A DNA stretch of 61,819 bases, from contig CAZMOW010000005.1 of NCBI GenBank assembly GCA_964567975.1, forward strand, positions 1 through 61,819. The letters run 5' to 3'. Both the position numbers and the translations under genes were made by a program. Under the pieces are notes generated by a model. The model was not told the origin of the DNA. It made no database searches and saw nothing but the letters and a program-made list of their open reading frames with translations. Source of the DNA: an uncultured Anaerolineales bacterium (lineage in GTDB: Bacteria; Chloroflexota; Anaerolineae; UBA1429). This document shows positions 7,043 through 51,930 of this stretch, in pieces (positions within the stretch are counted from its first letter, which is position 1; every line of letters starts with the position of its first letter).

Positions 7043-7090
7043 GGTGCTAGAGTCTCCCTATTTGAGAGCAATCTTGAGGAGTTCTGGTCC

Positions 7091-33186: not shown

Positions 33187-33930
33187 TCACTGTATCAGAT
33201 CCTCCAGCCGATATCTCGTGAGCCTCCAGGCGGCCCAGTATAGAGCAAGGGCAAAGAGTGCACTGACGCCCAGATCGAGCACCAGAGGATAGTGGGCCTC
33301 TCCTTTGGCTATCAGGAGATACCGCAAGGCATCCACCATATAGGTCAGGGGGAGAAAGCTGGCCACGACGCGCAGGATAGCGGGCATCCCGGCGAGGGGC
33401 ACAAAGACGCCACATAAAAAGACCATGGGGAAGCGAAAATAGTTGGACACGGTCATGGCGTCGAACACCTCACGCATCAAGAGGCTGATCACCACGCCAA
33501 GCAGAGAAAATGTCACGCTTCCCAAAAGGATGGTGACGAGGATGCCCAACCAGGCAAAGTGCAGGCCCCAGGCCACGCTGCCGACCAGCCATACCAGGCA
33601 ACCGGTGGTCAGCCCGAACAGCGCGCCGCTGGCCATCTTGCCCATAACCAGGGTGGCGGGGGCTATGGGGGCCATCAGCAGGCGCTCCATGGCTCCGATG
33701 CGTTTCTCAAAGGCGATGACCACCGCCTCCATGGATGTGGTGCCAAAGAGGACGGTTATGCCGATTAACCCGGGGAACACGGAACGAATATCCCCTGGGT
33801 TTCGAATATAAAAGGCCAGGATCATCACCAGGGGAAATAAGATGCCCCAACTGATGATGGGCGATTTGAGATAATAGGTGCGCATGTCCTTGCGCGTGAT
33901 ATACCAGGCGCGTTTCAGCTGTACCTTCAC
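33187..33930 (-). CDS. ABC-2 type exporter permease (DrrB-like)
   Basis: 247 aa with six TM-like segments. 4-nt overlap with the upstream ATPase gene. Confidence 0.75.
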   Translation of the reverse strand: MKVQLKRAWYITRKDMRTYYLKSPIISWGILFPLVMILAFYIRNPGDIRSVFPGLIGITVLFGTTSMEAVVIAFEKRIGAMERLLMAPIAPATLVMGKMASGALFGLTTGCLVWLVGSVAWGLHFAWLGILVTILLGSVTFSLLGVVISLLMREVFDAMTVSNYFRFPMVFLCGVFVPLAGMPAILRVVASFLPLTYMVDALRYLLIAKGEAHYPLVLDLGVSALFALALYWAAWRLTRYRLEDLIQ

Positions 33931-34910
33931 CGTTTGCTACCTCCTTGGCCGTTGGGGGCCTTTTGTTGTTCCAGTGTCTCCACGTCCATGCCGGTCAATT
34001 TCACAAAGGCGTCCTCCAGGGATACATTTACCGATCGAATCTCCTCGATGGGGGCCTGATGCTGGCGCATGATGGCGCATATCTCGCTCAGTCCGTCGTC
34101 CAGAGAATTTGCGCCGAGGCGCAGGCGGTTCTTTCTCGCAGAGACGGTGCTGATCTTGTCGGATGCTTCCAGGGCGCGACGGAGAGCTTTAGTGGGCGAG
34201 GGGGTCACCACCTCCACACGAAGGTCGTCATTCTGGTACCGTCTTCGCAGGGCGGAAGGGGTATCCACAGTAACCAGTTTCCCATCCACGATGATGCCCA
34301 CGCGGTCGCACAGGCGCTCTGCCTCGGCGATTAGGTGGGTGGTGAGAAAGATGGTCACCCCTTCGGCGCGGAACTCGTGGATCATGGTGCGCAGGTCTCT
34401 GGCGCTTTGCACGTCCAGGCCGGTGGTCGGCTCGTCCAAAAAGAGTATGGTGGGATGGTGCACCAGGGCCGCGGCTATGGTGAGGCGGCGTTTCATGCCC
34501 CTGGAGAGGGCCCCAAAGGGAGAGTCGGCCCGCTCGGATAGCTTCACCCGCTGCAAGAGTTCGTCTGCTCGCGGACGCCACTGGCTGCGTGGCAGGCCGT
34601 AGAGTTGGGCCATAAAGATAAGATTATCCCGCGCGCAGAGTTCGCCGTACAGGTTGGAACGCTCGGGGACGACCCCCACCCGTGCCTTCACCTCCAGGGG
34701 CTGGTTTTGTATATTCAGGCCATCGACGAGGGCCGTGCCCTCTGTGGGCTGGATCAGGCCCGTCAGCATGCGGATGGTCGTCGTCTTGCCCGCCCCATTG
34801 GGCCCCAGAAAGGCGAACAGTTCTCCCGAGTCTACCGTCAGGTTCAGGTCGTCGACGGCGCACAGGCCGTTATAGTGACGCGTCAGTCCGTCAGTTTCTA
34901 TGGATGCCAT
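33927..34910 (-). CDS. ABC transporter ATP-binding protein (DrrA-like)
   Basis: Walker A GPNGAGKTT, signature LSRGMKRRL, Walker B ILFLDEPTTGLD. Confidence 0.9.
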   Translation of the reverse strand: MASIETDGLTRHYNGLCAVDDLNLTVDSGELFAFLGPNGAGKTTTIRMLTGLIQPTEGTALVDGLNIQNQPLEVKARVGVVPERSNLYGELCARDNLIFMAQLYGLPRSQWRPRADELLQRVKLSERADSPFGALSRGMKRRLTIAAALVHHPTILFLDEPTTGLDVQSARDLRTMIHEFRAEGVTIFLTTHLIAEAERLCDRVGIIVDGKLVTVDTPSALRRRYQNDDLRVEVVTPSPTKALRRALEASDKISTVSARKNRLRLGANSLDDGLSEICAIMRQHQAPIEEIRSVNVSLEDAFVKLTGMDVETLEQQKAPNGQGGSKR

Positions 34911-34920
34911 TCTCGTTTAT

Positions 34921-36066
34921 CTATACCTCCTGTAGATTTCCTTCGATCGTGCCCCGGCGGATAAGCCAGCGCACCGTATAGGCAGCGGCCAGGCCCACGA
35001 TAAAGCCGACGGCCATGTTAAGGGCTACCGATATGGCGGCCGTGAGCAGGGCCAGGTAGAGGGGCCATCTTCGCAGTTCGGTGGCGACTTTTGCCAGGCG
35101 AATGCCCACCATGAACATCATGCCACCGATCAGGGGCATGGGAAAGGCGGTGAGGATGGCCAGCAGGGCCCGCCCCAAAAAGATCCCCAGGGTGATCTCG
35201 ATCAGCCCCTCCAGAATACTCGCGCCGCCGGTACGCGCGCCAAAATAGTATTGGCCGGCCAAGCCGTGCGCTCCATGGCACATGGGCATGCCGCCAAAGA
35301 GGGAGGAGACCACGTTCATCACCCCCATGTTAAACAGCAATTTCCTCTCGGTTACAGGCTTTTCGGGAAAGAGGTCGCGGATCAGAGTGGCCGTGGCCAG
35401 TACCGCGTTGGTTATGGATAGGGGAATCTGGGCGAATCCCCCTCGCACCATGGCCTGCCATATGTCTGACCACTTGGGCACGGAGAACCTGGGCAATCCT
35501 ATGCCAAAGTCGAGTCCCTGAGACAGTTCCCCCCTGATTAGCATGATGACGATGCCCAGGCCCATGATCACCACCGCCGCGGGAGCGTAGCGGTTCTCCC
35601 GCAGCAACAGGATAATGACTATGGCCAGGGCACCCAGCCACAGTTCGGGGAGCATCATCTCCACGGCGCTCATTCCCAGACTGATCCCCAGCGCCAACTG
35701 GATGCCGCGTATGAGGTAGGTGGGGATCTTTTCCACGAGTTCGCTCACCAGCCCCGTCAGCACCAGAAAAAGCCAGAGAAGCCCCAGACCCAATGCGGAA
35801 GCGGTGACCATGGCGGCCGGCCACCCCTCGGCGATGGCCGTGACCGCGATGACCTTTTTGGGTTCCAGGGGCATGGGCAGGCGATACACGACTCCCAGGA
35901 GGATGTTGGCCAGCCCCATCATCACAAACATGGCGGTGGGATCCAGGCGAGAGACGGCGATGAGTCCCACGGCAAGGGGAAAGAGGGTGCCGAAATCGCC
36001 CATGGATCCGCCCAGCTCGCGCATATTGAATTCGAAATCCGGGTATTGTGCCGTATCGCGCTCCAT
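34921..36066 (-). CDS. MOT1-like / SulP-related putative molybdate or sulfate transporter
   Basis: N-terminal ELGGSMGDFGTLFPLAVGLI resembles the E.sG..GDlGT motif of MOT1-type transporters (recalled). 381 aa, polytopic. Confidence 0.5.
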   Translation of the reverse strand: MERDTAQYPDFEFNMRELGGSMGDFGTLFPLAVGLIAVSRLDPTAMFVMMGLANILLGVVYRLPMPLEPKKVIAVTAIAEGWPAAMVTASALGLGLLWLFLVLTGLVSELVEKIPTYLIRGIQLALGISLGMSAVEMMLPELWLGALAIVIILLLRENRYAPAAVVIMGLGIVIMLIRGELSQGLDFGIGLPRFSVPKWSDIWQAMVRGGFAQIPLSITNAVLATATLIRDLFPEKPVTERKLLFNMGVMNVVSSLFGGMPMCHGAHGLAGQYYFGARTGGASILEGLIEITLGIFLGRALLAILTAFPMPLIGGMMFMVGIRLAKVATELRRWPLYLALLTAAISVALNMAVGFIVGLAAAYTVRWLIRRGTIEGNLQEV

Positions 36067-36097
36067 AAGAGAGCTTCTCCTTTGTACTATTTCACTT

Positions 36098-36859
36098 CTA
36101 TCCGTTTTCTTTTTGCAGCAGCCAGGTGGCGATGCCTAAAAAGATAACGCCGTAAATTAACTGTATTCCCAGAGCGATCACAAAACTTCCCGCATTTGCC
36201 GGGCCATTCATGGCCCGGCGCAGGGCGTTCACCGCGTATGTGAGAGGTGACAGCAGGGCTACATTTCGCACCAACGCCGACGCGGCTTCAAGGGGGGCAA
36301 AGGCCCCGGACAGGAAAACCATGATAATGCGTATGACAGTCGCCGGAGGCATGGCCTGTGGGACATCTCGAAAGGGGGCCGCCAGGCAAAGCCCGAAGCC
36401 GGAGAAACAAAAAGAGGAAAACAGAGCGGCGATGGAGAACAGGATCAGGTTTGGTTGTAAAGGCAGGAGCAACAGTACGACCGCCATATAGGTCACAGCC
36501 AGAACGAGGCCAAATACAACACCGGCCAACGCCTTTCCCACCACGATCATTAGCGGGGTGACGGGCGTTGCCAGCATGGTGTGCAACGTCCCTGTCCTTC
36601 TCTCCAGGGGCAGAGATACGGCCTGGATGGCTCCGGCACCGAAAAAGATGGCGATGGCTATCAGTCCCGGGATGATCCTGATGAGTTCCACCTCCCTGTT
36701 GAGAGAGAAAGCCCAGTAGAGGACCAGCGGCAGAAAGAGCCCAAAGGTCAGGTTAGGCCCCTTGAAAAAGTATATTCTGGCATCCTTTTCTCCTATCCAG
36801 AGAACTTTTTTTAATCCCCCGAGCCACCTCTTACTCATTATTTCCTCTCTTGCCTTCAC
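36098..36859 (-). CDS. ABC-2 type exporter permease (DrrB-like)
   Basis: 253 aa, polytopic. The C-terminal ABC-2 signature-like region LSGAFAPLEAASALVRNVALLSPLTYAVNALR is present. Start is GTG 36859 or a downstream ATG. Confidence 0.75.
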   Translation of the reverse strand: MKAREEIMSKRWLGGLKKVLWIGEKDARIYFFKGPNLTFGLFLPLVLYWAFSLNREVELIRIIPGLIAIAIFFGAGAIQAVSLPLERRTGTLHTMLATPVTPLMIVVGKALAGVVFGLVLAVTYMAVVLLLLPLQPNLILFSIAALFSSFCFSGFGLCLAAPFRDVPQAMPPATVIRIIMVFLSGAFAPLEAASALVRNVALLSPLTYAVNALRRAMNGPANAGSFVIALGIQLIYGVIFLGIATWLLQKENG

Positions 36860-36906
36860 TCCAGATGCTCCTCGACGGCCATAGCCTCAGGCGGCAGTCC
36901 TAAGCG
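36856..36906 (-). pseudogene. vestigial 3-prime end of a DrrA-like ATPase gene
   Basis: The minus-strand frame reads RLGLPPEAMAVEEHLE-stop. The intact ATPase at 37884-38846 ends LTGLPPETMTVEERLE-stop. The vestigial TGA (36856-36858) overlaps the permease GTG (36857-36859) as GTGA. Confidence 0.6.
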
Positions 36907-37052
36907 CTCGTTCCCAAGCAGATGCCGATAGCCGTCTCTCCATCTTCTATCAGCCTACCCTTGCTAATCCCCTCAAATTGAGAGACATGCCTCGCAAGCG
37001 AGGCACCGAAACATTTTGGCCACGAGAGAACTGACCCCACCTTCCCTTTGCG

Positions 37053-37754
37053 CTACGATTGCTTGGCCAGACGCAAGATCATGCCCCCCTCGAAAGTCAG
37101 TTCATCAATATGGCCGGCTGACTTGCCGTCCTTGGATATGAGATGGATATGCATCGCGTTTTTCACGCCTTTATCTTTAACGGCAGGAGCGTAGGTGCCG
37201 ATGAACACACCGTGGTGTTTTTCAGAGTAGAACCCGATGATGTTCACCTCTTCGTTTTTCGTGACATAGTTCGCTTTGGATTCCCTGAAAAGTTCGCGGG
37301 TGATGGGCTTGCCCCCCGTGCGGTCGACATTGATGTGCCACCTTAGTTCGGCGGCCTTGCCCGTCACCAGGAAAGGAAAGGCCACAGCGCCGGTGTCGAT
37401 ACCGGCGGCGGTCGCGCGAGCCTTGACGAAGCGCTGCAGGTCATAATAGGTCTTTACATCGGCAGAGACTGATTCGTCGCGCCACTGCGTATTCTTGGTC
37501 CAGGCACCAAAGATCGCCGTGCCGTGGCGGCCATTGTCCATGATAAAGCCATCGCCACGCACCCTGGTCACATAGGGCTTGCTCTCAAAGACAGTGATCT
37601 CTCCATCGAGGTCGCCACAGGCGCCCACGCCGTAGGTAGCGTTGGAACCCGACATCTCGGCAATGGGCAGGACGCCCTCTGTCTTGCCGGAAGCTACGAT
37701 GGCCGCCTGTTTCCCATAGTATTCGACCAGACCGTGGTTGTGATGCTTGGTCAT
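37053..37754 (-). CDS. alpha-acetolactate decarboxylase-family-like protein
   Basis: GVGACGDLDGEITVFESKPY and GFYSEKHHGVF...MHIHLISKDGKSAGHIDEL resemble the ALDC GTF..LDGE and HxHxxxxxxxxxxH zinc-site pattern (recalled). ATG 37754 (MTKHHNH) is preferred over the track start. Confidence 0.45.
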   Translation of the reverse strand: MTKHHNHGLVEYYGKQAAIVASGKTEGVLPIAEMSGSNATYGVGACGDLDGEITVFESKPYVTRVRGDGFIMDNGRHGTAIFGAWTKNTQWRDESVSADVKTYYDLQRFVKARATAAGIDTGAVAFPFLVTGKAAELRWHINVDRTGGKPITRELFRESKANYVTKNEEVNIIGFYSEKHHGVFIGTYAPAVKDKGVKNAMHIHLISKDGKSAGHIDELTFEGGMILRLAKQS

Positions 37755-37883
37755 GTCATCTCTCCCCGTGATTAGTTTGGGTTTGCAGGGTGCGGGTCTT
37801 GCTCTCGGGTACCATCCACATCCTCTCGCTCGAAGCGCAGCCATATGCCGATGGCTGCCTCCCCATTGTTTTTCCTTTTGTCT

Positions 37884-38846
37884 TCACTCCAGCCGTTCCT
37901 CGACGGTCATGGTCTCGGGGGGCAATCCTGTGAGTGCGACAAAGGCGTCTTCCAATGTGGGTTGGCTCGTGTTTAGGGATAACACTTTTAATTGACTCTC
38001 TCGGGCCGTGTCCACAAGGGCCGGGAGTATTTCGGAGGGGTCCTGGACGTACAGTGTAGCCCTTTTTCCAGAGATGATCACCTCTTCTACGTGATCGAGT
38101 TTCTGGAGGCCGATGCGAATCGCGTCCGCTGGATCGTCAAACGAGGCCCGAATGACCTTTCCCCTTTGGGCCAGGCTTTTGAGGTTTTCTGGCGTATCTA
38201 TGGCGACGATTTTGCCCTGGTTCAGGATGGCGATTCGCTGACATAGTTGGTCAGCCTCCTCGATATAGTGCGTTGTGAGGAGAATCGTCACGCCTCTCTC
38301 ATGCAGTTCCCGCATCAGATCGCGGATCAATCGGGCACTCTGGACGTCGAGGCCGGTGGTTGGCTCATCCAAAAAGAGGATTTCGGGCTCGTGGATCAGG
38401 GCGGCGGCGATTGTCAAGCGCTTTTTCAGCCCCGTCGAAAGGGCAGCGGTGCGTCTATCGCGCATGCCGTACAGGCCAAAGAGGTGGAGCAGCTCCTCGG
38501 CTCGCTGGGTCCTTTTCCCCCTGGGCATCCCGTGCAGCCTGGCTACAAAGATGAGGTTATCCCATGCGGTCATCTCGCCGTACAAATCCGCGACATCTGA
38601 GACTACCCCGATGTGTTCCTTCACCTCGATGGGGTGACTGACTATGTCGAGACCAGCCACGGTCGCTGTCCCCGACGAGGGTGTGCTCAGGCCCGTGAGC
38701 ATGCGGATACTCGTCGTCTTGCCCGCGCCATTGGGGCCGAGGAGTCCGAATAACTCGCCCTCTTGCACTGAAAAGCTGACGTCATCGACAGCAAGGAGAT
38801 GGCGGTAATATTTGGTCAGGTGTTGTCCGTCTATCGCTCTGCTCAT
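37884..38846 (-). CDS. ABC transporter ATP-binding protein (DrrA-like)
   Basis: GPNGAGKTT, LSTGLKKRL, ILFLDEPTTGLD. 320 aa. Confidence 0.9.
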   Translation of the reverse strand: MSRAIDGQHLTKYYRHLLAVDDVSFSVQEGELFGLLGPNGAGKTTSIRMLTGLSTPSSGTATVAGLDIVSHPIEVKEHIGVVSDVADLYGEMTAWDNLIFVARLHGMPRGKRTQRAEELLHLFGLYGMRDRRTAALSTGLKKRLTIAAALIHEPEILFLDEPTTGLDVQSARLIRDLMRELHERGVTILLTTHYIEEADQLCQRIAILNQGKIVAIDTPENLKSLAQRGKVIRASFDDPADAIRIGLQKLDHVEEVIISGKRATLYVQDPSEILPALVDTARESQLKVLSLNTSQPTLEDAFVALTGLPPETMTVEERLE

Positions 38847-40688
38847 CCTTGTCTATTGGGATCCTTTCACCTGATTCGGCGATGTGGCGGCCCACTGCCG
38901 CTGGTAGAGGCGCTGGTACGTGGGGTTATTCTCCACCAGTTCACCGTGCGAGCCCTGGCCCGCGATGCGCCCGTCCTCGACAACCACGATGCGATCGGCC
39001 TTGCGCAGGGTGGAGAAGCGGTGGGCGATGATGATGGTGGTGCGATCCTCCCGGATGGCGTCCATGGCCCGTTGGATCAGGGCCTCGGTATAGGGATCGA
39101 CATCGGCCGTGGCCTCATCCAGGATGAGGATCTTGGGATCGGCCAGCAGGGCACGGGCAAAGGCCACGAGCTGCCTCTGACCTCCCGACAAGAGCGCGCC
39201 GCTCTCCCCCACCTCGGTATTATATCCCTGAGGCAGATTTTTGATAAATTGATGTGCCTGGGCGCGCCTGGCCGCCTCCTTGACCTCCTCATCGGTGGCC
39301 TGGGGATCGCCATAGCGTATGTTTTCCATGATGCTGTCCGCAAAGAGGAACACAGCCTGGGGCACCAGCATGATCAGGCGGCGCAGATCCTCGGGGGCGA
39401 TGTGCCGCACGTCTATCCCGTCGATGCTGACTGTACCCTCCTGTGTGTCATAGAGCCGGGCCAGCAGGCGAGCGATGGTGCTTTTGCCCGCGCCCGTAGG
39501 TCCCACCAGGGCGATGGTCTCTGCGGGACGGATGGATAGGTTCAGGTCATGGAGCACGGTTTCCTCATCGTAGCCAAAGGTGACGTCGGAGAAGGTGATG
39601 GCACCCTGAAATCCCCCTTCAGGTGCCTGGGGATGCTCGGGGGGCTCTATCTCTAGGGGTTCATTCATGTATTCGTTGATGCGATCCAGGGAAGCCGCCG
39701 CCGACTGAAAGGTATTGTAAACCAGGCTCAGTTCACGGAGGGGGCCAAAGAAGCGGTTCACATAGCCCATAAAGGCCAGGAGTACACCGATAGTGAGGGT
39801 ACCTTGGGCCACCAACGTGCCCCCGTACCCCAGAACGAGGGCCGTGCCCAGCATGTTGGTGATGGTCATGATGGGAAATACGGCGGCAAAGAGCAGGCTC
39901 ACACGGAGGTTGGCCTGGAGGTTGCGCAGGCTCAGGTTCTCGAACTGTTGCACGGTAAAGGACTCTTGAGAGAGGGACTGTACCACGCGCATGCCAGACA
40001 CTCCCTGCTCCACGCCGGCGTTCACGGCGGCCAGTTCCTGTTGCACCTGACGATAGGCGCCCCGCATCTTTTTGCCCAAGTATCCCATGCTGATGATGAC
40101 CACGGGAATGGAGATCATGGTCACGAGGCTGAGGCGCACGTTGATGAGTAACATGATGACGACTATGCCAATCAAGGTCAGCACATCGCTGAACAGATTG
40201 ACAAGGCTGCTGGATACCATGTCCGACAGGGTGTTGACGTCGTTGGTGAGGCGGGAGGAGATCTGTCCCACGCGTTCCTTACCGTGGAAGGCCATGGATT
40301 GCTGTAACACCCGATGGAACAGATCCCGCCGGATATCATAGATGACGTGTTGGCCGACCCAGGTCGAAAGGTATCCCTGAGCATATTGCGCCGCCCAAAA
40401 GAGGCCGTTGAGGCCCAGGTAAAGGAGGCAGATGAGGCTCAGGCCCCTGAAATCGCCCTGCGCGATATAGTCATCGAGGGCTACCTTGCTCAGATAGGGC
40501 ATCAGGAGCACGGACCCCGCCACCAGCAACATGGCCCCGATGGCCAGCAGCAGGCGACCCACATAAGGTCGCAGATATTGCGTCAGCATGCGTACCGCCT
40601 GACGATCCAGACGGCGAAGACTGTACTCCTCCTCTTCGCCCCGGAGACGCCCCACGAATCCGCCGCGTCTGGGCATGCTCTCACTCCT
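38718..40688. repeat. direct repeat, copy A (~1.97 kb)
   Basis: Aligns with 41153-43122 at an offset of 2434-2435 nt. From 38828 to 40578 I found no differences, and all overlapping track ORFs translate identically. The flanks carry SNPs and a 1-nt indel. Confidence 0.9.
38853..40676 (-). CDS. MsbA-like ABC exporter half-transporter (TMD-NBD), repeat copy A
   Basis: N-terminal six-TM domain, then [31 protein letters not shown] 40676 (MPRRGGF) is homologous to the copy B start; the track start at 40691 adds 5 codons. Identical to copy B except in about the first 35 residues. Confidence 0.85.
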   Translation of the reverse strand: MPRRGGFVGRLRGEEEEYSLRRLDRQAVRMLTQYLRPYVGRLLLAIGAMLLVAGSVLLMPYLSKVALDDYIAQGDFRGLSLICLLYLGLNGLFWAAQYAQGYLSTWVGQHVIYDIRRDLFHRVLQQSMAFHGKERVGQISSRLTNDVNTLSDMVSSSLVNLFSDVLTLIGIVVIMLLINVRLSLVTMISIPVVIISMGYLGKKMRGAYRQVQQELAAVNAGVEQGVSGMRVVQSLSQESFTVQQFENLSLRNLQANLRVSLLFAAVFPIMTITNMLGTALVLGYGGTLVAQGTLTIGVLLAFMGYVNRFFGPLRELSLVYNTFQSAAASLDRINEYMNEPLEIEPPEHPQAPEGGFQGAITFSDVTFGYDEETVLHDLNLSIRPAETIALVGPTGAGKSTIARLLARLYDTQEGTVSIDGIDVRHIAPEDLRRLIMLVPQAVFLFADSIMENIRYGDPQATDEEVKEAARRAQAHQFIKNLPQGYNTEVGESGALLSGGQRQLVAFARALLADPKILILDEATADVDPYTEALIQRAMDAIREDRTTIIIAHRFSTLRKADRIVVVEDGRIAGQGSHGELVENNPTYQRLYQRQWAATSPNQVKGSQ

Positions 40689-41152
40689 CATATTATATGT
40701 ATGAGGGAGCCAGTTCTCCCTCGATTTGACTTTGGGGAAATCCCTGGCATCCTGGGGACTGGCCCAGGGAGCGAAACGCTATCGCTCCTTGTTGCACCCT
40801 ACGGGGTGACTTCTAAGAAAGCTTGCGTCCCTCGTCCCGATGGGTACTTCTCACCCGTATCTTGTGCCTCTGCTTCCCGCTCACCTGTGGCAGCAGCCTC
40901 AGGGCGTTTCCTGAGCCGGAAGCAAGCTCTCATTAACTGCGAGGCTGTTGATCTCATCGGGTACCAGGGATCCCCCTTGGCAAACGTCTCTCACCACACT
41001 GTACACAGGAGGTGCGTATTATGAGCAACAACCCCTTGTTAGTGGGCGTTGACGTCCACCGCAAAACGAACACCATTTGCCTCATGAATCGTTATGGCCA
41101 AGAGATCGGCCAACGGCTCAGTGTCCCAAACAATCGGCAGGGTACGGCAACG
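40689..41152 (+). mobile_element. IS110-family insertion sequence remnant: 5-prime non-coding end plus the first 44 codons of the transposase
   Basis: AGGAGG RBS, then ATG 41021. [44 protein letters not shown] matches the DEDD-type IS110 transposase N-terminus (the G.DVHK pattern). The reading frame runs straight into repeat copy B at 41153. Confidence 0.65.
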
Positions 41153-41280
41153 CTTGCCCGCGCCATTGGGGCCAAGCAGTCCGAAAAGTTCGCCCGATTG
41201 CACCGAAAAGCTGACGTCATTGACAGCAAGGAGATGGCGGTAGTATTGGTCAGGTGTTGTGCGTCTATCGCTCTGCTCAT
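41153..41280 (-). pseudogene. 5-prime fragment of a DrrA-like ATPase gene (start codon to Walker A), frameshifted
   Basis: A diverged copy of 38718-38846: MSRAID.QHLT...[29 protein letters not shown] 1-nt deletion relative to copy A splits it between two frames. It ends exactly at the Lys codon of GPNGAGK. Confidence 0.8.
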
Positions 41281-41286
41281 CCTTGT

Positions 41287-43110
41287 CTATTGGGATCCTT
41301 TCACCTGATTCGGCGATGTGGCGGCCCACTGCCGCTGGTAGAGGCGCTGGTACGTGGGGTTATTCTCCACCAGTTCACCGTGCGAGCCCTGGCCCGCGAT
41401 GCGCCCGTCCTCGACAACCACGATGCGATCGGCCTTGCGCAGGGTGGAGAAGCGGTGGGCGATGATGATGGTGGTGCGATCCTCCCGGATGGCGTCCATG
41501 GCCCGTTGGATCAGGGCCTCGGTATAGGGATCGACATCGGCCGTGGCCTCATCCAGGATGAGGATCTTGGGATCGGCCAGCAGGGCACGGGCAAAGGCCA
41601 CGAGCTGCCTCTGACCTCCCGACAAGAGCGCGCCGCTCTCCCCCACCTCGGTATTATATCCCTGAGGCAGATTTTTGATAAATTGATGTGCCTGGGCGCG
41701 CCTGGCCGCCTCCTTGACCTCCTCATCGGTGGCCTGGGGATCGCCATAGCGTATGTTTTCCATGATGCTGTCCGCAAAGAGGAACACAGCCTGGGGCACC
41801 AGCATGATCAGGCGGCGCAGATCCTCGGGGGCGATGTGCCGCACGTCTATCCCGTCGATGCTGACTGTACCCTCCTGTGTGTCATAGAGCCGGGCCAGCA
41901 GGCGAGCGATGGTGCTTTTGCCCGCGCCCGTAGGTCCCACCAGGGCGATGGTCTCTGCGGGACGGATGGATAGGTTCAGGTCATGGAGCACGGTTTCCTC
42001 ATCGTAGCCAAAGGTGACGTCGGAGAAGGTGATGGCACCCTGAAATCCCCCTTCAGGTGCCTGGGGATGCTCGGGGGGCTCTATCTCTAGGGGTTCATTC
42101 ATGTATTCGTTGATGCGATCCAGGGAAGCCGCCGCCGACTGAAAGGTATTGTAAACCAGGCTCAGTTCACGGAGGGGGCCAAAGAAGCGGTTCACATAGC
42201 CCATAAAGGCCAGGAGTACACCGATAGTGAGGGTACCTTGGGCCACCAACGTGCCCCCGTACCCCAGAACGAGGGCCGTGCCCAGCATGTTGGTGATGGT
42301 CATGATGGGAAATACGGCGGCAAAGAGCAGGCTCACACGGAGGTTGGCCTGGAGGTTGCGCAGGCTCAGGTTCTCGAACTGTTGCACGGTAAAGGACTCT
42401 TGAGAGAGGGACTGTACCACGCGCATGCCAGACACTCCCTGCTCCACGCCGGCGTTCACGGCGGCCAGTTCCTGTTGCACCTGACGATAGGCGCCCCGCA
42501 TCTTTTTGCCCAAGTATCCCATGCTGATGATGACCACGGGAATGGAGATCATGGTCACGAGGCTGAGGCGCACGTTGATGAGTAACATGATGACGACTAT
42601 GCCAATCAAGGTCAGCACATCGCTGAACAGATTGACAAGGCTGCTGGATACCATGTCCGACAGGGTGTTGACGTCGTTGGTGAGGCGGGAGGAGATCTGT
42701 CCCACGCGTTCCTTACCGTGGAAGGCCATGGATTGCTGTAACACCCGATGGAACAGATCCCGCCGGATATCATAGATGACGTGTTGGCCGACCCAGGTCG
42801 AAAGGTATCCCTGAGCATATTGCGCCGCCCAAAAGAGGCCGTTGAGGCCCAGGTAAAGGAGGCAGATGAGGCTCAGGCCCCTGAAATCGCCCTGCGCGAT
42901 ATAGTCATCGAGGGCTACCTTGCTCAGATAGGGCATCAGGAGCACGGACCCCGCCACCAGCAACATGGCCCCGATGGCCAGCAGCAGGCGACCCACATAA
43001 GGTCGCAGATATCGTGTCAGCATGCGTACCGCCTGACGATCCAGATGGCGAAGACTGTACTCCTCCTCTTCGCCCTGGAGACGCCTCATGAACCCGCCGC
43101 GAATAGTCAT
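41287..43110 (-). CDS. MsbA-like ABC exporter half-transporter, repeat copy B (probable heterodimer partner of the upstream gene)
   Basis: 607 aa with the same motifs as copy A. ATGA overlap with the gene at 43107-45038. Confidence 0.9.
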
Positions 43111-45128: not shown

Positions 45129-45437
45129 TCAGTGACCATCCTGGATTCCCAGAACGGTTAACTTTTCTAGACTTTTGATTCCCCTTGGTTCATCTTTTTC
45201 GATAAAGATGCTCGACTGTTCTCCCAGTTCAAAACTCCCCTCGCGGTTCGTGAATAGACCCCGGCCTTTGAGGACCAAGAAAAAGACCGCGTAGGGTTCA
45301 GGGTGTGGGGGGATCTCTTGCCCGGTCTCAAAGCAAACCAGGACGACGTTGAAATTCTCCGATTTTAGAATGTCGGTTTTATTTGGTCTTTCCCCAGAAA
45401 AGTTTTGAAAAGATAAAATATCGTCTATTTTTCTCAT
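45129..45437 (-). CDS. small cupin-domain protein
   Basis: 102 aa. GQEIPPHPEPYAVFFLVLKGRG...IFIEKDEPRGI fits the cupin_2 pattern. Visibly AT-rich. Confidence 0.6.
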   Translation of the reverse strand: MRKIDDILSFQNFSGERPNKTDILKSENFNVVLVCFETGQEIPPHPEPYAVFFLVLKGRGLFTNREGSFELGEQSSIFIEKDEPRGIKSLEKLTVLGIQDGH

Positions 45438-45463
45438 TGTTTACTCCTATTCCTTTGCTAAAC

Positions 45464-45823
45464 TCAGTATCCCAGCACGCGAGCCCGATGATGCATCCGG
45501 GCAGCGGGGATCAAAAAGACCACCAACAGTATCGGCAGCAGCGCCAGGTCAAGCCAGGGAGTCAAGAACCCTTTTCCTAGCACGGCATGGTTCATCAAAT
45601 CCTGCGTACAAGTCAGCGGCGACAGATAGGCAAGCCCTCGCGCCCAGGGTGCCATCTCTTCCAGTGGGACGAATATGCCACTGATGAACATCAAGGACCA
45701 ACGCACAACGTTGGGGCCCAGGAAGCCAAAGACTTGGCCCTGTTGCACGGCAAAGTCGATATGATCCACAGCGAGGAGATCGCCATAGTAGGTGAGGTTC
45801 TGCACTTGAATGGCATCAGACAT
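45464..45823 (-). pseudogene. in-frame chimera: ABC ATPase N-terminus (to GPN of Walker A) joined to the C-terminal ~80 aa of an ABC-2 permease
   Basis: MSDAIQVQNLTYYGDLLAVDHIDFAVQQGQVFGFLGPN | VVRWSLMFISGIFVPLEEMAPWARGLAYLSPLTCTQDLMNHAVLGKGF... The junction lies between nt 45710 and 45709. Confidence 0.7.
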
Positions 45824-46007
45824 TGGTGTTGCCTCTCGGACAGTACTTCTTCCATGGCGTTTACTCCCAGGTCGGTTTTTCCTAAAAGTGTGGGGCAATC
45901 TGCCCCACCAAGAATAAGTTCCAAATGTGCTTTAAGCGCGGTTTTCTGTAACATGGCGAGGCGTACAAGCGCCAGTCAACAGCGACTGTACGCCTCGGGT
46001 TTCTCCA

Positions 46008-46130
46008 CTATTCGGTCTCGCAGGGATGTTCGCTGACGTCACCGTGGCATTCCCGAATCTGCTCGGGGGCGCAATCGCCAGGCTCACCTTCCAGCCGTTC
46101 TGGATGGGCGCACTCGCAGTCGCAGCACAT
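46008..46130 (-). CDS. 40-aa Cys/His-rich small protein, absent from the ORF track (metallothionein-like candidate)
   Basis: Hand translation: MCCDCECAHPERLEGEPGDCAPEQIRECHGDVSEHPCETE-stop, with 7 Cys and 4 His. AAAGGAGGTGAGG lies immediately upstream of the ATG. It starts 25 nt after the arsR stop on the same strand, and a 10-bp hairpin (45958-45996) follows. Confidence 0.5.
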   Translation of the reverse strand: MCCDCECAHPERLEGEPGDCAPEQIRECHGDVSEHPCETE

Positions 46131-46155
46131 GGATACCTCACCTCCTTTCCAAAGA

Positions 46156-46470
46156 TTAGGATTCCTTTACCATTTTACAAAAAGCCTCGCCCAACTGCTC
46201 ACGGGCCAGGCGCTGATAGGCGGCTATCCGTTCGTGATCCAAGTAGTAGTGAAGCCGATATCCCTGCCGCTCTCCCCGCACAAGTCCCAGGTCTTTCAAG
46301 ATGCGCAGATGCTGGGAGACGGCCGAAGAACTGACGCCCAGTTCCTGGGCCAGGCGGCCCACACACAGGGCTCGCCCGGGCCGCTGTTGGGCCAGGAGCC
46401 GTACAAGTTGTAGACGGGTCTCGTCGGCGAGGGCTTTGTAGAATGGAACCAGTTTGTCCATTTCGCTCAC
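46156..46470 (-). CDS. ArsR/SmtB-family metalloregulator
   Basis: ALADETRLQLVRLL...LCVGRLAQELGVSSSAVSQHLRILKDLGLV is a winged-HTH ArsR pattern. Start is GTG 46470 or ATG 46461. Confidence 0.85.
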   Translation of the reverse strand: MSEMDKLVPFYKALADETRLQLVRLLAQQRPGRALCVGRLAQELGVSSSAVSQHLRILKDLGLVRGERQGYRLHYYLDHERIAAYQRLAREQLGEAFCKMVKES

Positions 46471-46481
46471 GGCTTTGATTT

Positions 46482-46491
46482 AGTGATCACT
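46482..46491. promoter_or_regulatory. candidate ArsR operator (10-bp perfect palindrome)
   Basis: AGTGATCACT lies 12-21 nt upstream of the arsR GTG. The duplicated copy at 48821-48830 reads AGTGATTACT. Confidence 0.3.
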
Positions 46492-46676
46492 TACATACTA
46501 ATATAGTTGCAGGGTTTAAGACTGTCAAATATGCTGGTGGCGTCAACTACGGGAAATCCCCTAGCCGTCATGGAGAAGGTGCTTAGCGGACATTCTCTTC
46601 AGCATACTCCCATATCCTGTCAGTTCACGTCACAAGCGGTACAAAAGTTTTTTGGAGGAAAATCATATCGCAGCTT

Positions 46677-48401
46677 TTATTCCAGCAATTGCGAGTTGTA
46701 GAGGCGAGTGTACAACCCCCCATTTTTAAGCAGCGTCTCATGTGTTCCTCTTTCGACTATCTCGCCTTCGTCCATAACCAGTATCTTATTAGCGTTCTGG
46801 ACAGTGGATAGTCTGTGAGCGATGATGAAAACGGTGCGATTCTCCACAAGATCCCCCAATGCTTCCTGGATCAAGGCCTCTGTTTCCGCATCAACGGAGG
46901 ATGTGGCTTCATCCAGGATTAGGATGCAAGGATCTTTAAGGATGGCTCTAGCGATAGAGATTCGTTGCTTTTCTCCAACCGATAGCTTGGCGGCTCTTTC
47001 ACCGACCTGGGTCTTATATCCTTCGGGCAGGGCTTTGATGAAGCGGTGAGCATTAGCTGCTTTGGCTGCGGCAACGATCTCATCCATTGTAGCATTGGGT
47101 TCTCCGAATACAATATTTTCCTCAACGGTCCCGTCGAATAGGAAAGTCTCTTGAGAAACTATGCCGATCTGCCTTCGCAGGGCCTCTGTCCGCAACTCTT
47201 TGACATCATATCCATCGATGGTGATCTTCCCTTGGCTTATGTCATAGAAGCGCGGTATGAGACTTAGCAGGGTGGTCTTCCCCGCTCCTGTGGGGCCCAC
47301 CAAGGCGACGGCCTCTCCCGGATGAGCCTCAAGATTCACGTTCTGTAAAACCTTGCTTCTGGTGACGTAACCAAAGGAAACGTTATTAAAAAGTACATGC
47401 CCTTTGCAGGGAGTGGGAAGGGGGATAGCGTCCTTGGCCTGTGAGATATCCGGCGTCACATCCAATATCTCAAAGACCCTTTCTGCAGCAGCGCGAGCTC
47501 GCTGCAAGGTGTGGTTTAGTCTATTCAGATCATGAACAGGCTGATAGAACTGGCCAACGTAGGAAATGAAGGCGACCATCTCTCCTACAGTTAGGCTCCC
47601 AACGATGATCTCTAGGCCGCCACGCCAAAGTATCAAAAGAGTACCGGCGGCTATAATAAACTGTATCGTGGGGGAGAAGATTGATCTCAGCTTGACGGCC
47701 CTCATATTGGCCGCGTAGTAGTTCTGATTCTCCCTGGCAAATTGTTCTGCCGCATAGTCCTCTTGGGTAAAGGCTTTGATCTCCTTCATTCCCGAGACGT
47801 TATCCTGTAGCCGTGCGCCCATATCCGCCAATCTCTTCCGTGCTTGACGAAAGAGCACAATCACCCGCTTGCTGAATTGATATATCGCCACCGATAGAAT
47901 CGGGATGGGGAGCATCGCGAGCAACGCCAGCCGCCAATTCATATACAACAGGACTGCCGAAATCCCTATCAGGGTTAAGACAGAGACGATAAAAGTTTCT
48001 GTCCCGTTGATGATTATGTCTTGTAGAACGTCGATGTCATTGATTATTTTGGACATTATTGTGCCGGTTTGAGTGCCCTCGTAGTAGCTTAAGGATAACC
48101 TCTGGAGATGCTCATAGGCCCGGTTTCGCAAATCGAAGATGACCTTTTGTCCAAGGTAGTTCGTCAGGAAGGATTTGCCCGCTATGAGAACGCTTCTTAG
48201 CACATAGACGAGAAGAAGGCCAAGGATGAGCAGATTCAGCGTGTGTATACTTCTGTTCACTACGACATTGTCGATTATTACCTTCATGAACCACGGGGGG
48301 ACAAGGTTCACCAGAGTCGCCAAGAGCGAACAGAAGACAGCTGCGAGAGCTTCTCGCCAGTAGGATTTGACATAATGCAATAATGCCAACATGGGCTTCA
48401 T
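46677..48401 (-). CDS. MsbA-like ABC exporter half-transporter (probable homodimer), low-GC
   Basis: 574 aa. Six-TM domain, [29 protein letters not shown]. Clearly lower GC than its neighbours. Confidence 0.9.
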   Translation of the reverse strand: MKPMLALLHYVKSYWREALAAVFCSLLATLVNLVPPWFMKVIIDNVVVNRSIHTLNLLILGLLLVYVLRSVLIAGKSFLTNYLGQKVIFDLRNRAYEHLQRLSLSYYEGTQTGTIMSKIINDIDVLQDIIINGTETFIVSVLTLIGISAVLLYMNWRLALLAMLPIPILSVAIYQFSKRVIVLFRQARKRLADMGARLQDNVSGMKEIKAFTQEDYAAEQFARENQNYYAANMRAVKLRSIFSPTIQFIIAAGTLLILWRGGLEIIVGSLTVGEMVAFISYVGQFYQPVHDLNRLNHTLQRARAAAERVFEILDVTPDISQAKDAIPLPTPCKGHVLFNNVSFGYVTRSKVLQNVNLEAHPGEAVALVGPTGAGKTTLLSLIPRFYDISQGKITIDGYDVKELRTEALRRQIGIVSQETFLFDGTVEENIVFGEPNATMDEIVAAAKAANAHRFIKALPEGYKTQVGERAAKLSVGEKQRISIARAILKDPCILILDEATSSVDAETEALIQEALGDLVENRTVFIIAHRLSTVQNANKILVMDEGEIVERGTHETLLKNGGLYTRLYNSQLLE

Positions 48402-48602
48402 ACAGCACCTTCTCGTATAATAGTATTGTCTCCTTCCCGGTTTGGAAAGCCCTGAAGGGACATCGCTTTCAATGCCCCTGGATTCAGATTCTTTCGCGTT
48501 GCTCAGAATAAGGAACGATCATTAGGCAGCTCTGCGGGATATACTTTGGATCCCATCTGATGCGGTTGACAATCTTCTTTTCCGCTCCAACGGAGCGGAA
48601 AA

Positions 48603-48809
48603 CCCTGCCGCTCTCCCCGCACAAGTCCCAGGTCTTTCAAGATGCGCAGATGCTGGGAGACGGCCGAAGAACTGACGCCCAGTTCCTGGGCCAGGCGGCC
48701 CACACACAGGGCTCGCCCGGGCCGCTGTTGGGCCAGGAGCCGTACAAGTTGTAGACGGGTCTCGTCGGCGAGGGCTTTAGAATGGAACCAGTTTGTCCAT
48801 TTCGCTCAC
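48603..48809 (-). pseudogene. arsR pseudogene (duplicate of 46262-46470)
   Basis: Near-identical to the functional copy, but a 2-bp deletion turns codon 8 into TAA (ATG GAC AAA CTG GTT CCA TTC TAA). Homology also stops about 35 codons before the normal C-terminus, at 48603. Confidence 0.8.
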
Positions 48810-49116
48810 GGCTTTGATTTAGTGATTACTTACATACTAATATAGTCGGGAGCTGGAGACCTGTCAAATTCAAGGGAACCCCTGGAGATGTTAGAGAAGA
48901 TATTCACGGGAGAGATTTCACGGTATGAGGGTAAAGGAGCGCTCCCAGCATTTTCAAAACAAAAGCTCGGGGAAGAGTGAATGTGAAGTTGGGAGTTCTC
49001 CATCGCCGAGACGCAGATAAAAAGGGAGGAAAAAAGCATTCCGTCTCTGCCGGTGAGACCTATTTCCCCTATCAAGCCCTGGAGTATGGGGGGATGCGTC
49101 GTCCTGGTTCCTGATC

Positions 49117-49746
49117 CTACATCTCGCGGATGACGCCGATGACTTTGCCCTGTATCTCCACCTTGTTGGCCCTCACATAGATGGGATCGAAGGTGGGGTT
49201 GCGAGGCTGCAGGCGCACGCGCTGTCCGCCGGCTTCCAGGTGGAACTCTTTTAGAGTCACCGTTTCCTCGTCCACGAGCCAGGCGGCCACCGTATCGCCG
49301 TTCTCGGCCGATCGTTGATGTCGCATGACGACGATATCGCCGTCGGCGATGAGGCTGTCGATCATCGAGTTGCCGTGCACGCGGAGGGCATAGATATCGT
49401 CCGTATTATTGAGCATCTCTGTGGGCACGGCGACGTGATCCAGTGCCGCCTCAGGGGCCTCGCTCCCTGGCACGGGAATCGGCTCGCCGGCCACGATGTT
49501 GCCCAGCAGAGGGACGGGCATGGCCGTCGTCTCTTCCTGCAGGCGCAAGCCCCGAGAGGTGTCTTTGTTGCGAGTGAGATAGCCCTTTTTCTCCAGTGCG
49601 TTCAGGTTGTAGCTGACCACGGAGGTGGACGAGATGCCGGCCGCCTCGCCTATCTCGCGGATGGTGGGGGGATAGCCGTACTCCACCAGATAGTCGCGGA
49701 TCGTCTCCAGGATCTTTTTCTGACGTTCGGACAATTCCTTTGCCAT
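49117..49746 (-). CDS. lexA: LexA repressor
   Basis: LSERQKKILETIRDYLVEYGYPPTIREIGEA, cleavage site VAGEP, Ser-Lys dyad context GNSM ... TLKEF. Confidence 0.9.
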   Translation of the reverse strand: MAKELSERQKKILETIRDYLVEYGYPPTIREIGEAAGISSTSVVSYNLNALEKKGYLTRNKDTSRGLRLQEETTAMPVPLLGNIVAGEPIPVPGSEAPEAALDHVAVPTEMLNNTDDIYALRVHGNSMIDSLIADGDIVVMRHQRSAENGDTVAAWLVDEETVTLKEFHLEAGGQRVRLQPRNPTFDPIYVRANKVEIQGKVIGVIREM

Positions 49747-49791
49747 ATGGCACACCGCTCCTTTCTCTCAGCCACTTGCATCCATTATAAT

Positions 49792-49803
49792 GAACATATG
49801 TTC
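49792..49803. promoter_or_regulatory. LexA (SOS) box of the GAAC-N4-GTTC type
   Basis: GAACATATGTTC lies 46 nt upstream of the lexA ATG, directly abutting a minus-strand TATAAT (plus-strand ATTATA, 49784-49789). Confidence 0.75.
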
Positions 49804-49878
49804 TATGTCAAATCGGTGATAGGGATGACTGTCCGCGGGTAGACGCTAGATGCGTAGACTTGGCGACGGGATGTCGAT

Positions 49879-49906
49879 GTAGAGACGCAAGATCTTGCGT
49901 CTCTAC
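49879..49906. repeat. 28-bp perfect palindrome
   Basis: GTAGAGACGCAAGATCTTGCGTCTCTAC, nested between GGCGACG (49862-49868) and CGTCGCC (49924-49930). Confidence 0.8.
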
Positions 49907-50113
49907 GCTCTGGGATATTGGCACGTCGCCGCATCATCTGACCGCACGTGGCAAGCCCGTCCTCAGCTGAGGGTTCAAATCTTGACGCTTCGAGTGGATA
50001 GTGACCGGGCAACTCGACAGCATGGAGGGCTTGCACTATGATAGGGGCAGATTGAGAGTTCAATGATCTTCTATGGTGCATTCGGTTCTTTCCGGATAAG
50101 AAAGGAGTACTCG

Positions 50114-50878
50114 ATGAAAGGTGTCGTTCTGGCTGGGGGATTGGGGACGCGGCTCTATCCCTTGACCCACGCTACAAACAAGCATCTGCTGCCGGTCTAT
50201 AATAGGCCCATGATCTTTTATCCCATCGATACGCTGGTGCAGGCGGGCATCACCGAGATTATGGTGGTCACCGGCGGCCCCCACGCGGGGGATTTCATTC
50301 GTGTGCTAAAGAATGGGACGCAATTGGGCCTGGCTCATCTGGAGTATGCCTATCAGGAAGATGAGGGGGGCATCGCGGACGCCCTGAGTCTGGCGGAAGA
50401 CTTTTCCGATGGGGGGCCTTTGGCTGTCATCCTGGGAGACAATACCACCGACGCCGATATCTCTGAGGCCGTACAGGGGTTCGAGGAGGGGGCCCTCGTC
50501 TTCTTGCGGCGCGTCCCCGATCCAGAGCGCTTTGGCGTGCCCAAGTTCGATCCGCAGACCGACAGAATTGTAGCCATTGAGGAAAAGCCGGAGGAGCCCA
50601 AGAGCGATTACGCCGTCACGGGCCTTTATCTTTATGATGCGCGCGTCTTTGATTTCATCCGCAGGGCTACTCCCTCGGAGCGGGGCGAGTTGGAGATCAC
50701 GGATATCAACAACATGTACATCGAGATCGGCCAATTGCGGTGGGCAGAACTGAACGGCTTCTGGTCGGATGCCGGGACCTTTGAGAGTCTGTTTCGGACC
50801 AACGCCTACTGGGCGCAAAAGGTGACGGGCAGGGCGTGTGAGGATTTTGGGTCGTATCTTGAGACGCCACCCGAATAG
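50114..50878 (+). CDS. sugar-1-phosphate nucleotidyltransferase (RmlA-like, glucose-1-phosphate thymidylyltransferase family)
   Basis: MKGVVLAGGLGTRLYPLTHATNKHLLPVYNRPMIFYPI. AAAGGAG RBS before ATG 50114. Confidence 0.8.
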   Translation: MKGVVLAGGLGTRLYPLTHATNKHLLPVYNRPMIFYPIDTLVQAGITEIMVVTGGPHAGDFIRVLKNGTQLGLAHLEYAYQEDEGGIADALSLAEDFSDGGPLAVILGDNTTDADISEAVQGFEEGALVFLRRVPDPERFGVPKFDPQTDRIVAIEEKPEEPKSDYAVTGLYLYDARVFDFIRRATPSERGELEITDINNMYIEIGQLRWAELNGFWSDAGTFESLFRTNAYWAQKVTGRACEDFGSYLETPPE

Positions 50879-50983
50879 CAGGATGAGAGAGTTCCTGTTG
50901 GTTGACAGTTTGACAGTGCTCTCTTGCTATCTCACAATCGTGACGTGTCAAGCATAGAAAGTCTATAGGAGAGTAAATAAATC

Positions 50984-51880: not shown

Positions 51881-51930
51881 TGTATGCTGAAGACGTCTGA
51901 GAAACGGAACGAGGGAGGAGCGTTGACACC

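Follow-up and report, generated by a model that had tools for sequence, protein, structure and literature searches.

A 40-codon Cys/His-rich gene beside arsR in an Anaerolineales contig, and the widespread module family to which it belongs

No family of bacterial metal sensors is more numerous than the ArsR/SmtB proteins, whose sensing sites normally lie within the repressor itself. ArsR-type repressors that have a small Cys-rich protein as partner or cargo are already known. The locus described here lies on contig CAZMOW010000005.1 of an uncultured Anaerolineales bacterium (61,819 nt; this whole stretch is called the window), where an ArsR/SmtB-family gene (arsR) is followed on the same strand by a 40-codon open reading frame (ORF) that specifies an acidic, Cys/His-rich mini-protein. 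The mini-protein consists of one module of a domain family that occurs alone, in tandem or fused to ArsR. By function, the module appears closest to SrnQ/SrnR, CopZ/CopY, ArsD and SmtA/SmtB; the sequence tests for SmtA/BmtA, ArsD and HMA/CopZ failed. As far as the libraries show, what is new is the domain family, together with its expression in split, fused and dual form and its wide occurrence across anaerobes.

A preliminary description of the window had likened the gene pair to SmtB–SmtA, a repressor with a metallothionein. The likeness holds in that the window ArsR is nearest to SmtB among solved structures and a small Cys/His protein is encoded alongside it. However, smtB and smtA are divergently oriented while the window genes are co-directional, separated by the 25 nt between arsR stop and peptide ATG that had been reported and that the coordinates confirm. 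The module also has a conserved scaffold of non-ligand residues and is fused to the repressor throughout a clade, which argues against a pure repressor-plus-cargo reading. The peptide had been judged to be unlike SmtA/BmtA, and no resemblance was found in the searches (no Pfam match at E ≤ 1, no PDB match at E ≤ 10).

With repressor, small Cys protein, ATPase and permease in this order, the genes are arranged as in arsRDAB and copYZAB, systems in which a chaperone may deliver its ligand to repressor and pump (CopZ/CopY, ArsD/ArsA). The sole resemblance to ArsD is the vicinal Cys pair (C2–C3) at the N-terminus of the window peptide, for which neither Pfam nor the PDB returned the ArsD family domain. 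ArsD is thioredoxin-like, about 120 amino acids (aa) long and carries Cys12, Cys13 and Cys18, and a 40-aa peptide is too short for that fold. Nor was there a Pfam match of the window peptide to CopZ/HMA, or an MxCxxC or CxxC motif within it. The module loci differ further in using ABC-2 or type-I ATP-binding cassette (ABC) exporters, not ArsAB or P-type ATPases.

CmtR senses via two Cys of alpha4 and one of the C-terminal tail (PMC11672702). The fused forms of ArsR and module likewise place Cys ligands on a C-terminal extension, besides a Cys in the helix-turn-helix (HTH) region; their tail, however, is a structured 34-aa unit with translation signals of its own, which is found as a free protein too, and the CmtR equivalog model scores 40–49 bits against a cutoff of 150. 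In Streptomyces griseus, the ArsR-family repressor SrnR depends on a separate Ni-binding partner, SrnQ; there too an ArsR/SmtB protein is paired with a small protein, one for which homologues are not known and which is proposed to carry the metal site (PMC7055735, PMC11672702). SrnR is among the PDB relatives of the window ArsR (1.1e-7). In contrast to SrnRQ, which represses sodF with Ni, the cargo of the module consists of exporters, and the module relies on Cys and His, occurs in many anaerobes and is in many cases joined to the repressor in one protein; it is likened to SrnQ by function.

The mini-protein gene and its module family

The 40-codon ORF is a real gene, far beyond chance, because it has matches in 210 protein clusters with E-values down to 1.5e-19 and is under purifying selection. 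These clusters were returned at E ≤ 1e-3 (19 of them at E ≤ 1e-10) by an exhaustive phmmer search against 1.84 billion cluster-representative proteins; two long, repetitive matches without the module motif (P0048, 848 aa; P0132, 462 aa) appear to be low-complexity false positives. The preliminary description had read this minus-strand ORF from nt 46,130 and proposed it as a genuine small-protein gene concealed by a 60-aa cutoff. Both the sequence and the ORF listing agree (ATG at 46130, stop codon at 46010–46008), and selection and homologues bear out the proposal. A word-indexed search gave four close homologues of 38–41 aa, and seven orthologous copies were assembled from homologue contigs and two genome loci, with arsR directly upstream in six. 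The homologous ORF is present in all seven, and substitutions respect its frame: the ratio of nonsynonymous to synonymous substitution rates (dN/dS, Nei–Gojobori) is 0.07–0.31 for all pairs, variable sites number 22, 9 and 7 at codon positions 3, 1 and 2, and the sole indel is a 6-nt in-frame deletion. Purifying selection in the peptide reading frame is clear. The strong Shine–Dalgarno sequence (SD) noted ahead of the ORF was located, and in the orthologue DNA alignment the SD and peptide ORF are more conserved than arsR itself. In one metagenome contig (L002, nt 162–1806), a DDE_5 transposase gene replaces arsR up to the peptide SD and the peptide ORF is intact, identical to that of locus L001; this looks like the insertion of an IS element that uncoupled peptide and repressor. 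The closest genome is an Anaerolineales metagenome-assembled genome (MAG) with 93% peptide identity, and the DNA sequencing runs holding the locus are metagenomes of microbial mat, soda lake and hypersaline sediment.

The window peptide is best explained as a small cytoplasmic protein, made up of a single C-x12-C-x7-CH-x5-H-x-C module and an MCCxCxC cluster at its N-terminus. It has 7 Cys and 12 acidic residues among its 40 aa, in line with the earlier count of seven Cys and many acidic residues, but 3 His (H9, H29, H35) instead of the four given there. The gene is followed, 11 nt past its stop, by the hairpin with a 10-bp stem that had also been reported, its arms as described. This stem-loop is specific to the clade of the window, where it is kept across six orthologous loci with three compensatory pairs (consensus structure −33.7 kcal/mol). 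It lacks a U-tract, a terminator scan gave no canonical terminator, and Rfam covariance models gave no match within nt 45,400–46,700 at E ≤ 1. Probably it is a partial terminator or a transcript-stabilising 3' structure.

The family module spans about 34 aa with the consensus xxC-x2-PExLKGKP-x2-C-[ST]PEQI[RK]ECHG[DE]-x3-HPC, the core of which, in the numbering of the window peptide, is C7...C20...C28-H29...H35-x-C37. Conservation was assessed in 124 modules of exactly 34 residues, chosen for C20, C28 and H29 in register, so that the 100% at these three positions is a selection criterion; among the others, G30 (96%), H35 (95%), C37 (94%), Q24 (93%), P17 (91%), I25 (85%), P10 (83%), C7 (82%) and L13 (80%) stand out. 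In a curated alignment of 64 modules, C7, C20, C28, H29, H35 and C37 are invariant. The conservation of P10, L13, P17, Q24 and G30, besides residues of ligand type, argues for a defined fold. The window peptide carries C7, P10, L13, P17, C20, Q24, I25, C28, H29, G30, H35, P36 and C37, and belongs to the family both by motif and by its phmmer matches to members. The conserved Cys spacing that the preliminary description had proposed thus applies to the core, while its N-terminal part (CC.C.C) is a variable add-on; 51 of the 128 stand-alone members start with 'MC'.

Three architectures occur: a single module (38–60 aa), two tandem modules (~75–80 aa; 29 of the ~150 members listed) and a C-terminal fusion to ArsR. 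Paralogous module genes may also lie about 1 kb apart within one locus, as in L036 (nt 5977–6111 and 7014–7148) and L027 (nt 5866–6105 and 6507–6935). Ahead of its module, protein P0056 (124 aa) has a probable coiled coil and a long stretch at the N-terminus that is rich in His and Cys (HDHHGHH..CCC..CHHHGH..); this stretch may be taken as a further hint of metal binding by the family.

Neither Pfam nor NCBIfam has a model for the module (the peptide, two-module and fused proteins were scanned), and two module profiles gave no match among PDB sequences at the threshold stated above. The AlphaFold2 model of the peptide is of moderate confidence (mean predicted local distance difference test score, pLDDT, 72), with helices at residues 22–29, spanning C20–C28, and 36–39; a Foldseek search of the PDB with this model found no structural neighbour. 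Public source names for ten clusters are just 'hypothetical protein' or 'ArsR family transcriptional regulator', the module motif strings occur in no searchable paper, and keyword literature searches gave nothing specific. As far as these tools tell, the module family is unnamed and undescribed within the libraries and literature searched.

When one genome of each species was scanned by pattern, at least 301 species genomes had a confirmed relative, a lower bound because two peptide patterns alone were scanned. Carriers are found in Anaerolineae, Dehalococcoidia, Desulfobacterota, Planctomycetota (Brocadiia, Phycisphaerae), Armatimonadota, Bacillota, Lentisphaerota, Atribacterota and others, besides a Bathyarchaeia MAG and a single organism in culture, Natroniella acetigena Z-7937 (L068). 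They are mostly anaerobes of sediments and mats, and cover at least eight phyla and an archaeon. Homologues within Chloroflexota, where the preliminary description had proposed to look, are among them, but the family is not specific to that phylum.

Linkage and fusion to ArsR

The assignment of the gene upstream of the peptide to the ArsR/SmtB family, made in the preliminary description, is well supported, as its product scores above the cutoffs of both PF01022 HTH_5 (8.8e-15, 54.8 bits, cutoff 22) and NCBIfam NF033788 (5.4e-24, 83.8 bits, cutoff 55). The protein has two Cys of interest, Cys36 in 'LCVG' and Cys98 close to the C-terminus. Its closest PDB relative is SmtB (1r1t, 2e-14), and Cys36 aligns with SmtB Cys61. 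For the ArsR part, all NCBIfam equivalog models of characterised subtypes (CmtR, BigR, TsoR, Rv2640c, SdpR) score far below their cutoffs. A BigR/SqrR-like reading of the 'LCVG' and C-terminal Cys layout was ruled out by the SmtB match in the PDB and the poor BigR score, and the hgcAB-linked ArsR2 was ruled out as the same system since it has a different, internal four-Cys site. Among 44 ArsR proteins associated with a module, Cys36 is conserved in 43, and no other Cys is common to all.

Gene neighbourhoods were examined for the best 80 of the 301 genome loci, with crude gene calling, and arrangements were counted over 83 loci with a module ORF, ArsR being detected by an ArsR profile. The module lies within the same ORF as the ArsR domain in 24 loci, and in another 29 arsR ends directly upstream on the same strand; seven have arsR within 3 kb, 21 lack it, and two are cut by a contig edge. 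Synteny with arsR, which had been proposed as a check on the window gene, is therefore strong, with arsR fused or directly upstream in 53 of the 81 informative loci, true fusions included.

The fused proteins are uniform (152–181 aa), share an invariant linker Cys and are near-universal in the sampled Desulfobacterota, and these three features together exclude chance read-through as an explanation. The window ArsR ends ('EAFCKMVKES') just beyond the position equivalent to the linker Cys, so that the window holds the split form of an ArsR-module unit; within its clade the linker-equivalent residue alternates between Cys and Tyr. In a Bacillota MAG (L046, nt ~5640–6123), the ArsR ORF includes the linker Cys, enters what begins as a Cys cluster ('ECCVKKEG') and then stops, and the module ORF follows in another frame with a 25-nt overlap. 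This has the look of a fused gene broken by a frameshift, or of an error in sequencing.

The fused genes retain translation signals for the module. In locus L008, for example, AAAGGAGG lies 8 nt ahead of the module ATG within the fused ORF. An SD-like run of at least 5 nt occurs within 20 nt before the module start in 23 of the 24 fused genes, compared with 7.8% of 1680 control windows taken from the same ORFs. The codon phase of this internal SD varies (it is translated as E-R-R, K-E-V, H-K-E-G etc.), which means that it is conserved as nucleotides and not as amino acids. The module starts with ATG in 23 of the 24, and the Val residue of the remaining one is encoded by GTG, an alternative start codon. 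Judged from these signals, the fused genes appear to yield two products, a tethered and a free module, and as the module has its own SD and start even when fused, the free peptide is apparently always made.

Exporter cargo and the gene string of the window

Cargo was surveyed by clustering and Pfam annotation of all neighbours within 4 kb of the module. ABC-2 systems are the commonest cargo: of the 61 loci whose downstream sequence extends for 2.5 kb or more, 26 have one. A DrrA-type ABC ATPase is near the module in 27 loci, in 26 of them downstream on the same strand, and an ABC-2 permease in 23, every one downstream on the same strand. Minor recurrent neighbours are split ArsP-type permeases (PF03773, 6 loci), TauE/SafE exporters (which follow the module in the fused class), cupins, a chromate transporter and MOT1-type transporters. 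Taken together, the ABC-2, ArsP, TauE, chromate and MOT1 transporters may hint at a metalloid or oxyanion-related species as the ligand. DsrE-like proteins adjoin the module in five loci. L056 (nt 5345–6141) encodes a 209-aa protein in which an ArsR HTH is joined to a sulfur-carrier domain of DsrE/DsrF-like type, and its module gene begins 23 nt further on. Several Planctomycetota loci, e.g., L041, have separate DsrE-like genes between module and ABC-2 transporter.

Table 1. Features of the arsR-peptide locus and its neighbours in the window.
Feature	Position (nt)	Strand	Basis
Truncated 5' arsR copy and duplicated promoter region	48869..48503	minus	HTH_5 fragment; ahead of exporter 48401..46677
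Upstream ABC exporter	48401..46677	minus	ABC domains (Pfam)
Candidate sigma-70-like promoter, TTGACA-17-TATATT	46500..46528	minus	11/12 consensus positions, upstream of arsR
Candidate ArsR operator, perfect 10-bp palindrome AGTGATCACT	46482..46491		Between -10 element and arsR start
arsR, 104-aa SmtB-like ArsR/SmtB-family repressor	46156..46470	minus	HTH_5 and NF033788 above cutoffs
Shine–Dalgarno of peptide gene, AAAGGAGGTGAGG	46148..46136	minus	Read from sequence; invariant in orthologue alignment
Cys7/His3 acidic 40-aa mini-protein gene	46130..46008	minus	ORF listing; product MCCDCECAHPERLEGEPGDCAPEQIRECHGDVSEHPCETE-stop
Stem-loop, arms GAGGCGTACA (45996..45987) and TGTACGCCTC (45967..45958)	45958..45996	minus	Starts 11 nt past peptide stop
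Deletion remnant, 144 aa; DrrA-type ATPase N-terminus in frame with ABC-2 permease C-terminus	45464..45898	minus	Pfam and NCBIfam matches split at ~residue 63
Small cupin-domain protein, 102 aa	45129..45437	minus	Pfam Cupin_2, 5.6e-8
Two type-I ABC exporter half-transporters, 643 and 607 aa	41287..45038	minus	Pfam ABC_membrane and ABC_tran
Duplicated ABC exporter	40691..38853	minus	ORF and Pfam
DrrA-type ATPase, intact	38846..37884	minus	ORF and Pfam
AAL_decarboxy-like protein	37844..37053	minus	ORF and Pfam
ABC-2 permease	36859..36098	minus	ORF and Pfam
MOT1/SulP-type anion transporter	36066..34921	minus	ORF and Pfam
Second DrrA-type ATPase	34910..33927	minus	ORF and Pfam

The features of the window are listed in Table 1. 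The promoter ahead of arsR is a candidate only, as one such match is about the expectation for shuffled sequence. The preliminary description had the gene string run into ABC exporters; these are indeed the usual cargo, but in the window they do not follow directly, the remnant and the cupin gene coming first. The remnant likely starts at the ATG at 45823, and its residues 22–65 match positions 1–45 of ATPases of ~320 aa and residues 61–143 match positions 163–245 of permeases of ~245 aa, which implies that about 1.3 kb has been deleted from an ancestral ABC-2 cargo. The identical arrangement in the nearest relative, L006, means that it is not an assembly artefact of the window. A cupin occupies the equivalent position in L004 and L007, and in L001 an equivalent type-I ABC pair follows arsR-peptide. 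The two half-transporters of the window are probably a heterodimer. The same-strand transporter string continues over nt 33,927–40,691 (minus strand), with putative co-transcription from arsR-peptide.

An ABC exporter gene is tandemly duplicated with a period of 2434 nt (ORFs 38853–40691 and 41287–43110, minus strand): the stretches 38812–39111 and 41246–41545 are 100% identical, and the exporter proteins are identical past about the first 20 residues. Between the copies lie an N-terminal fragment of an IS110-family transposase (PF01548, 1.8e-6, just below the cutoff) and a second N-terminal remnant of an ABC ATPase, and the region includes a plus-strand ORF (41012–41308). Either a recent rearrangement or an assembly collapse/expansion could account for this duplication. 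Upstream of arsR, direct repeats (nt 46,253–46,530 and 48,594–48,869, 88–98% identity) include a copy of the promoter region at 48778–48869. The palindrome in the duplicated arsR region is AGTGATTACT, one change from AGTGATCACT, and the duplicated candidate operator may control the upstream exporter as well. Beyond it, lexA and genes for an NTP-transferase, a DHDPS-family protein and a flavodoxin (nt 49,117–52,503) are syntenic with the arsR-peptide flanks in L001 and L003. In L003, arsR lies ~200 nt after lexA, whereas in the window the extra ABC exporter and the truncated arsR copy intervene, a difference indicating that the transporter island grew by local insertion or duplication.

Possible roles of the module

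The reading favoured here, judged to have about an even chance of being correct, is that the module would bind a thiophilic metal or metalloid and serve ArsR as a sensor or chaperone partner. Fusion to ArsR in a whole clade indicates a relation closer than that of repressor and cargo, and a partner or sensor role suits it better than the pure logic of SmtB–SmtA. Module and N-terminal Cys cluster would bind a thiophilic or soft metal or metalloid through Cys and His, and the loaded module would act on ArsR by sharing or handing over the ligand. As the ArsR has one universally conserved thiol (Cys36), it probably needs the ligands of the module, in cis or in trans, for sensing. On ligand binding the repressor would leave its operator, so that the arsR-peptide-exporter string is expressed, and the module may additionally hand the ligand to the exporter. 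ArsR and module may interact physically, with the 24 fused loci as indirect support.

A sharper form of this proposal is more tentative, and on balance doubtful. In it, ArsR would consist of two pieces, the module being an obligatory sensor subunit that is translated separately, so that a 40-aa protein supplies the ligand site in trans; the fused ORF would give tethered and free copies via the conserved internal ribosome-binding site, and the ratio of free to tethered copies would set the threshold at which the exporter is induced by a metal(loid) of sulfidic habitats.

Several observations weigh against a role as metal(loid)-binding partner of ArsR. The 21 loci without arsR are mostly of Dehalococcoidia/Chloroflexia, in the context PCC, module, cold-shock and GYD, and their setting among unrelated genes means that the module can work without a linked ArsR. 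Other regulators can take the place of ArsR ahead of module, ABC ATPase and ABC-2 permease, namely PadR in a Desulfobacterota MAG (L016, nt 3334–5674) and a divergent HxlR in the Bathyarchaeia MAG (L060, nt 3600–5896), so that the module is not strictly tied to ArsR. The ArsR of the window clade retains the SmtB-like 'DH' in alpha5 and might sense the ligand alone. The N-terminal Cys cluster is enriched where ArsR is present (mean number of Cys 2.25 in fused, 1.59 in split and 0.71 in arsR-less forms; Mann–Whitney p = 6e-6), which fits a role at the ArsR interface, but the correlation is confounded by phylogeny because the arsR-less group is largely one clade. Lastly, in Pfam, NCBIfam, PDB sequences and Foldseek the module has no similarity to a known metal-binding family or fold, and it is without the CxxC knuckles that are typical of Zn or Fe-S sites.

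Four other readings were weighed. The peptide could instead be a metallothionein-like buffer or store that sequesters excess metal as ArsR-derepressed cargo and does not act on the repressor. Its small size and richness in Cys and His, the tandem forms (which raise the ligand count as metallothionein domains do), the Cys/His-rich tails or heads of some members (e.g., P0056, P0136), the free peptide apparently made in every case and the 21 loci without arsR would all be expected of such a protein. Metallothioneins are, however, Cys-dense and otherwise variable, while the module has just 4 Cys and 2 His per 34 aa and conserves many non-ligand residues (P10, L13, P17, Q24, I25, G30, P36). There was also no match to Pfam Metallothio_Pro or to SmtA in the PDB, and pure storage would not easily explain why an entire clade has the module joined in frame to the repressor, conserved linker Cys included. 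This reading is judged unlikely.

It is less probable again that the module serves thiol-redox or reactive-sulfur chemistry, its Cys carrying persulfide, polysulfide or disulfides and relaying or sensing sulfur or redox stress for a winged-helix regulator. The DsrE-like neighbours in five loci and the ArsR-DsrE fusion of L056 would suit such chemistry, as would the TauE/SafE exporters after the module in the fused class, the HxlR-type regulator of the archaeal locus and the hosts, which are anaerobes of sulfidic mats and sediments. Nevertheless, the near-invariant H29 (present in all selected modules) and H35 (95%) suit metal ligation better, as does the 'CH' pair, the ArsR part scores 33–42 bits against the BigR equivalog cutoff of 155, and the dominant cargo is an ABC-2 exporter, not sulfur-oxidising enzymes.

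An Fe-S mini-domain, with the four conserved Cys as ligands of a [4Fe-4S] or [2Fe-2S] cluster and the ArsR-module pair as a sensor of O2, NO or redox state, is improbable to a greater degree. SufR, an ArsR-type HTH protein with a Cys4 cluster domain, provides an analogue, and exactly four near-invariant Cys per module, an almost exclusively anaerobic distribution and the fusion to a DNA-binding domain are as this reading would have it. There is, however, no CxxC or CxxCxxC motif, a cluster would not need the conserved His, exporter cargo is unexpected for a sensor of O2 or NO, and the neighbours surveyed include no Fe-S assembly genes. Finally, the shortness of the ORF and the conserved hairpin and transporter genes after it might suggest a chance ORF, a leader peptide with an attenuator hairpin or the precursor of a ribosomally synthesised and post-translationally modified peptide (RiPP) exported by ABC transporters (ABC-2 transporters accompany some peptide natural products), but these readings and that of a known RNA are hardly credible and effectively refuted by amino-acid conservation over at least eight phyla, purifying selection, the ArsR fusion, the absence of radical-SAM, LanM or YcaO-like modifying enzymes among the recurrent neighbours and the window string, the lack of an Rfam element, and the position of the hairpin after the stop codon and in the clade of the window alone.

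Looking more widely, the unnamed Cys4His2 domain looks like a modular accessory of the ArsR/SmtB family, and as a partner of ArsR it would give a second, far more widespread case of the rare partner-dependent ArsR design exemplified by SrnR/SrnQ. The gene is a concrete example of what a 60-aa ORF cutoff conceals. Once the ligand is identified, hundreds of small genes now called 'hypothetical' would gain an annotation, as would the exporter operons that follow them, and it could become clear which metal(loid) or sulfur species anaerobes in sulfidic sediments have to export.

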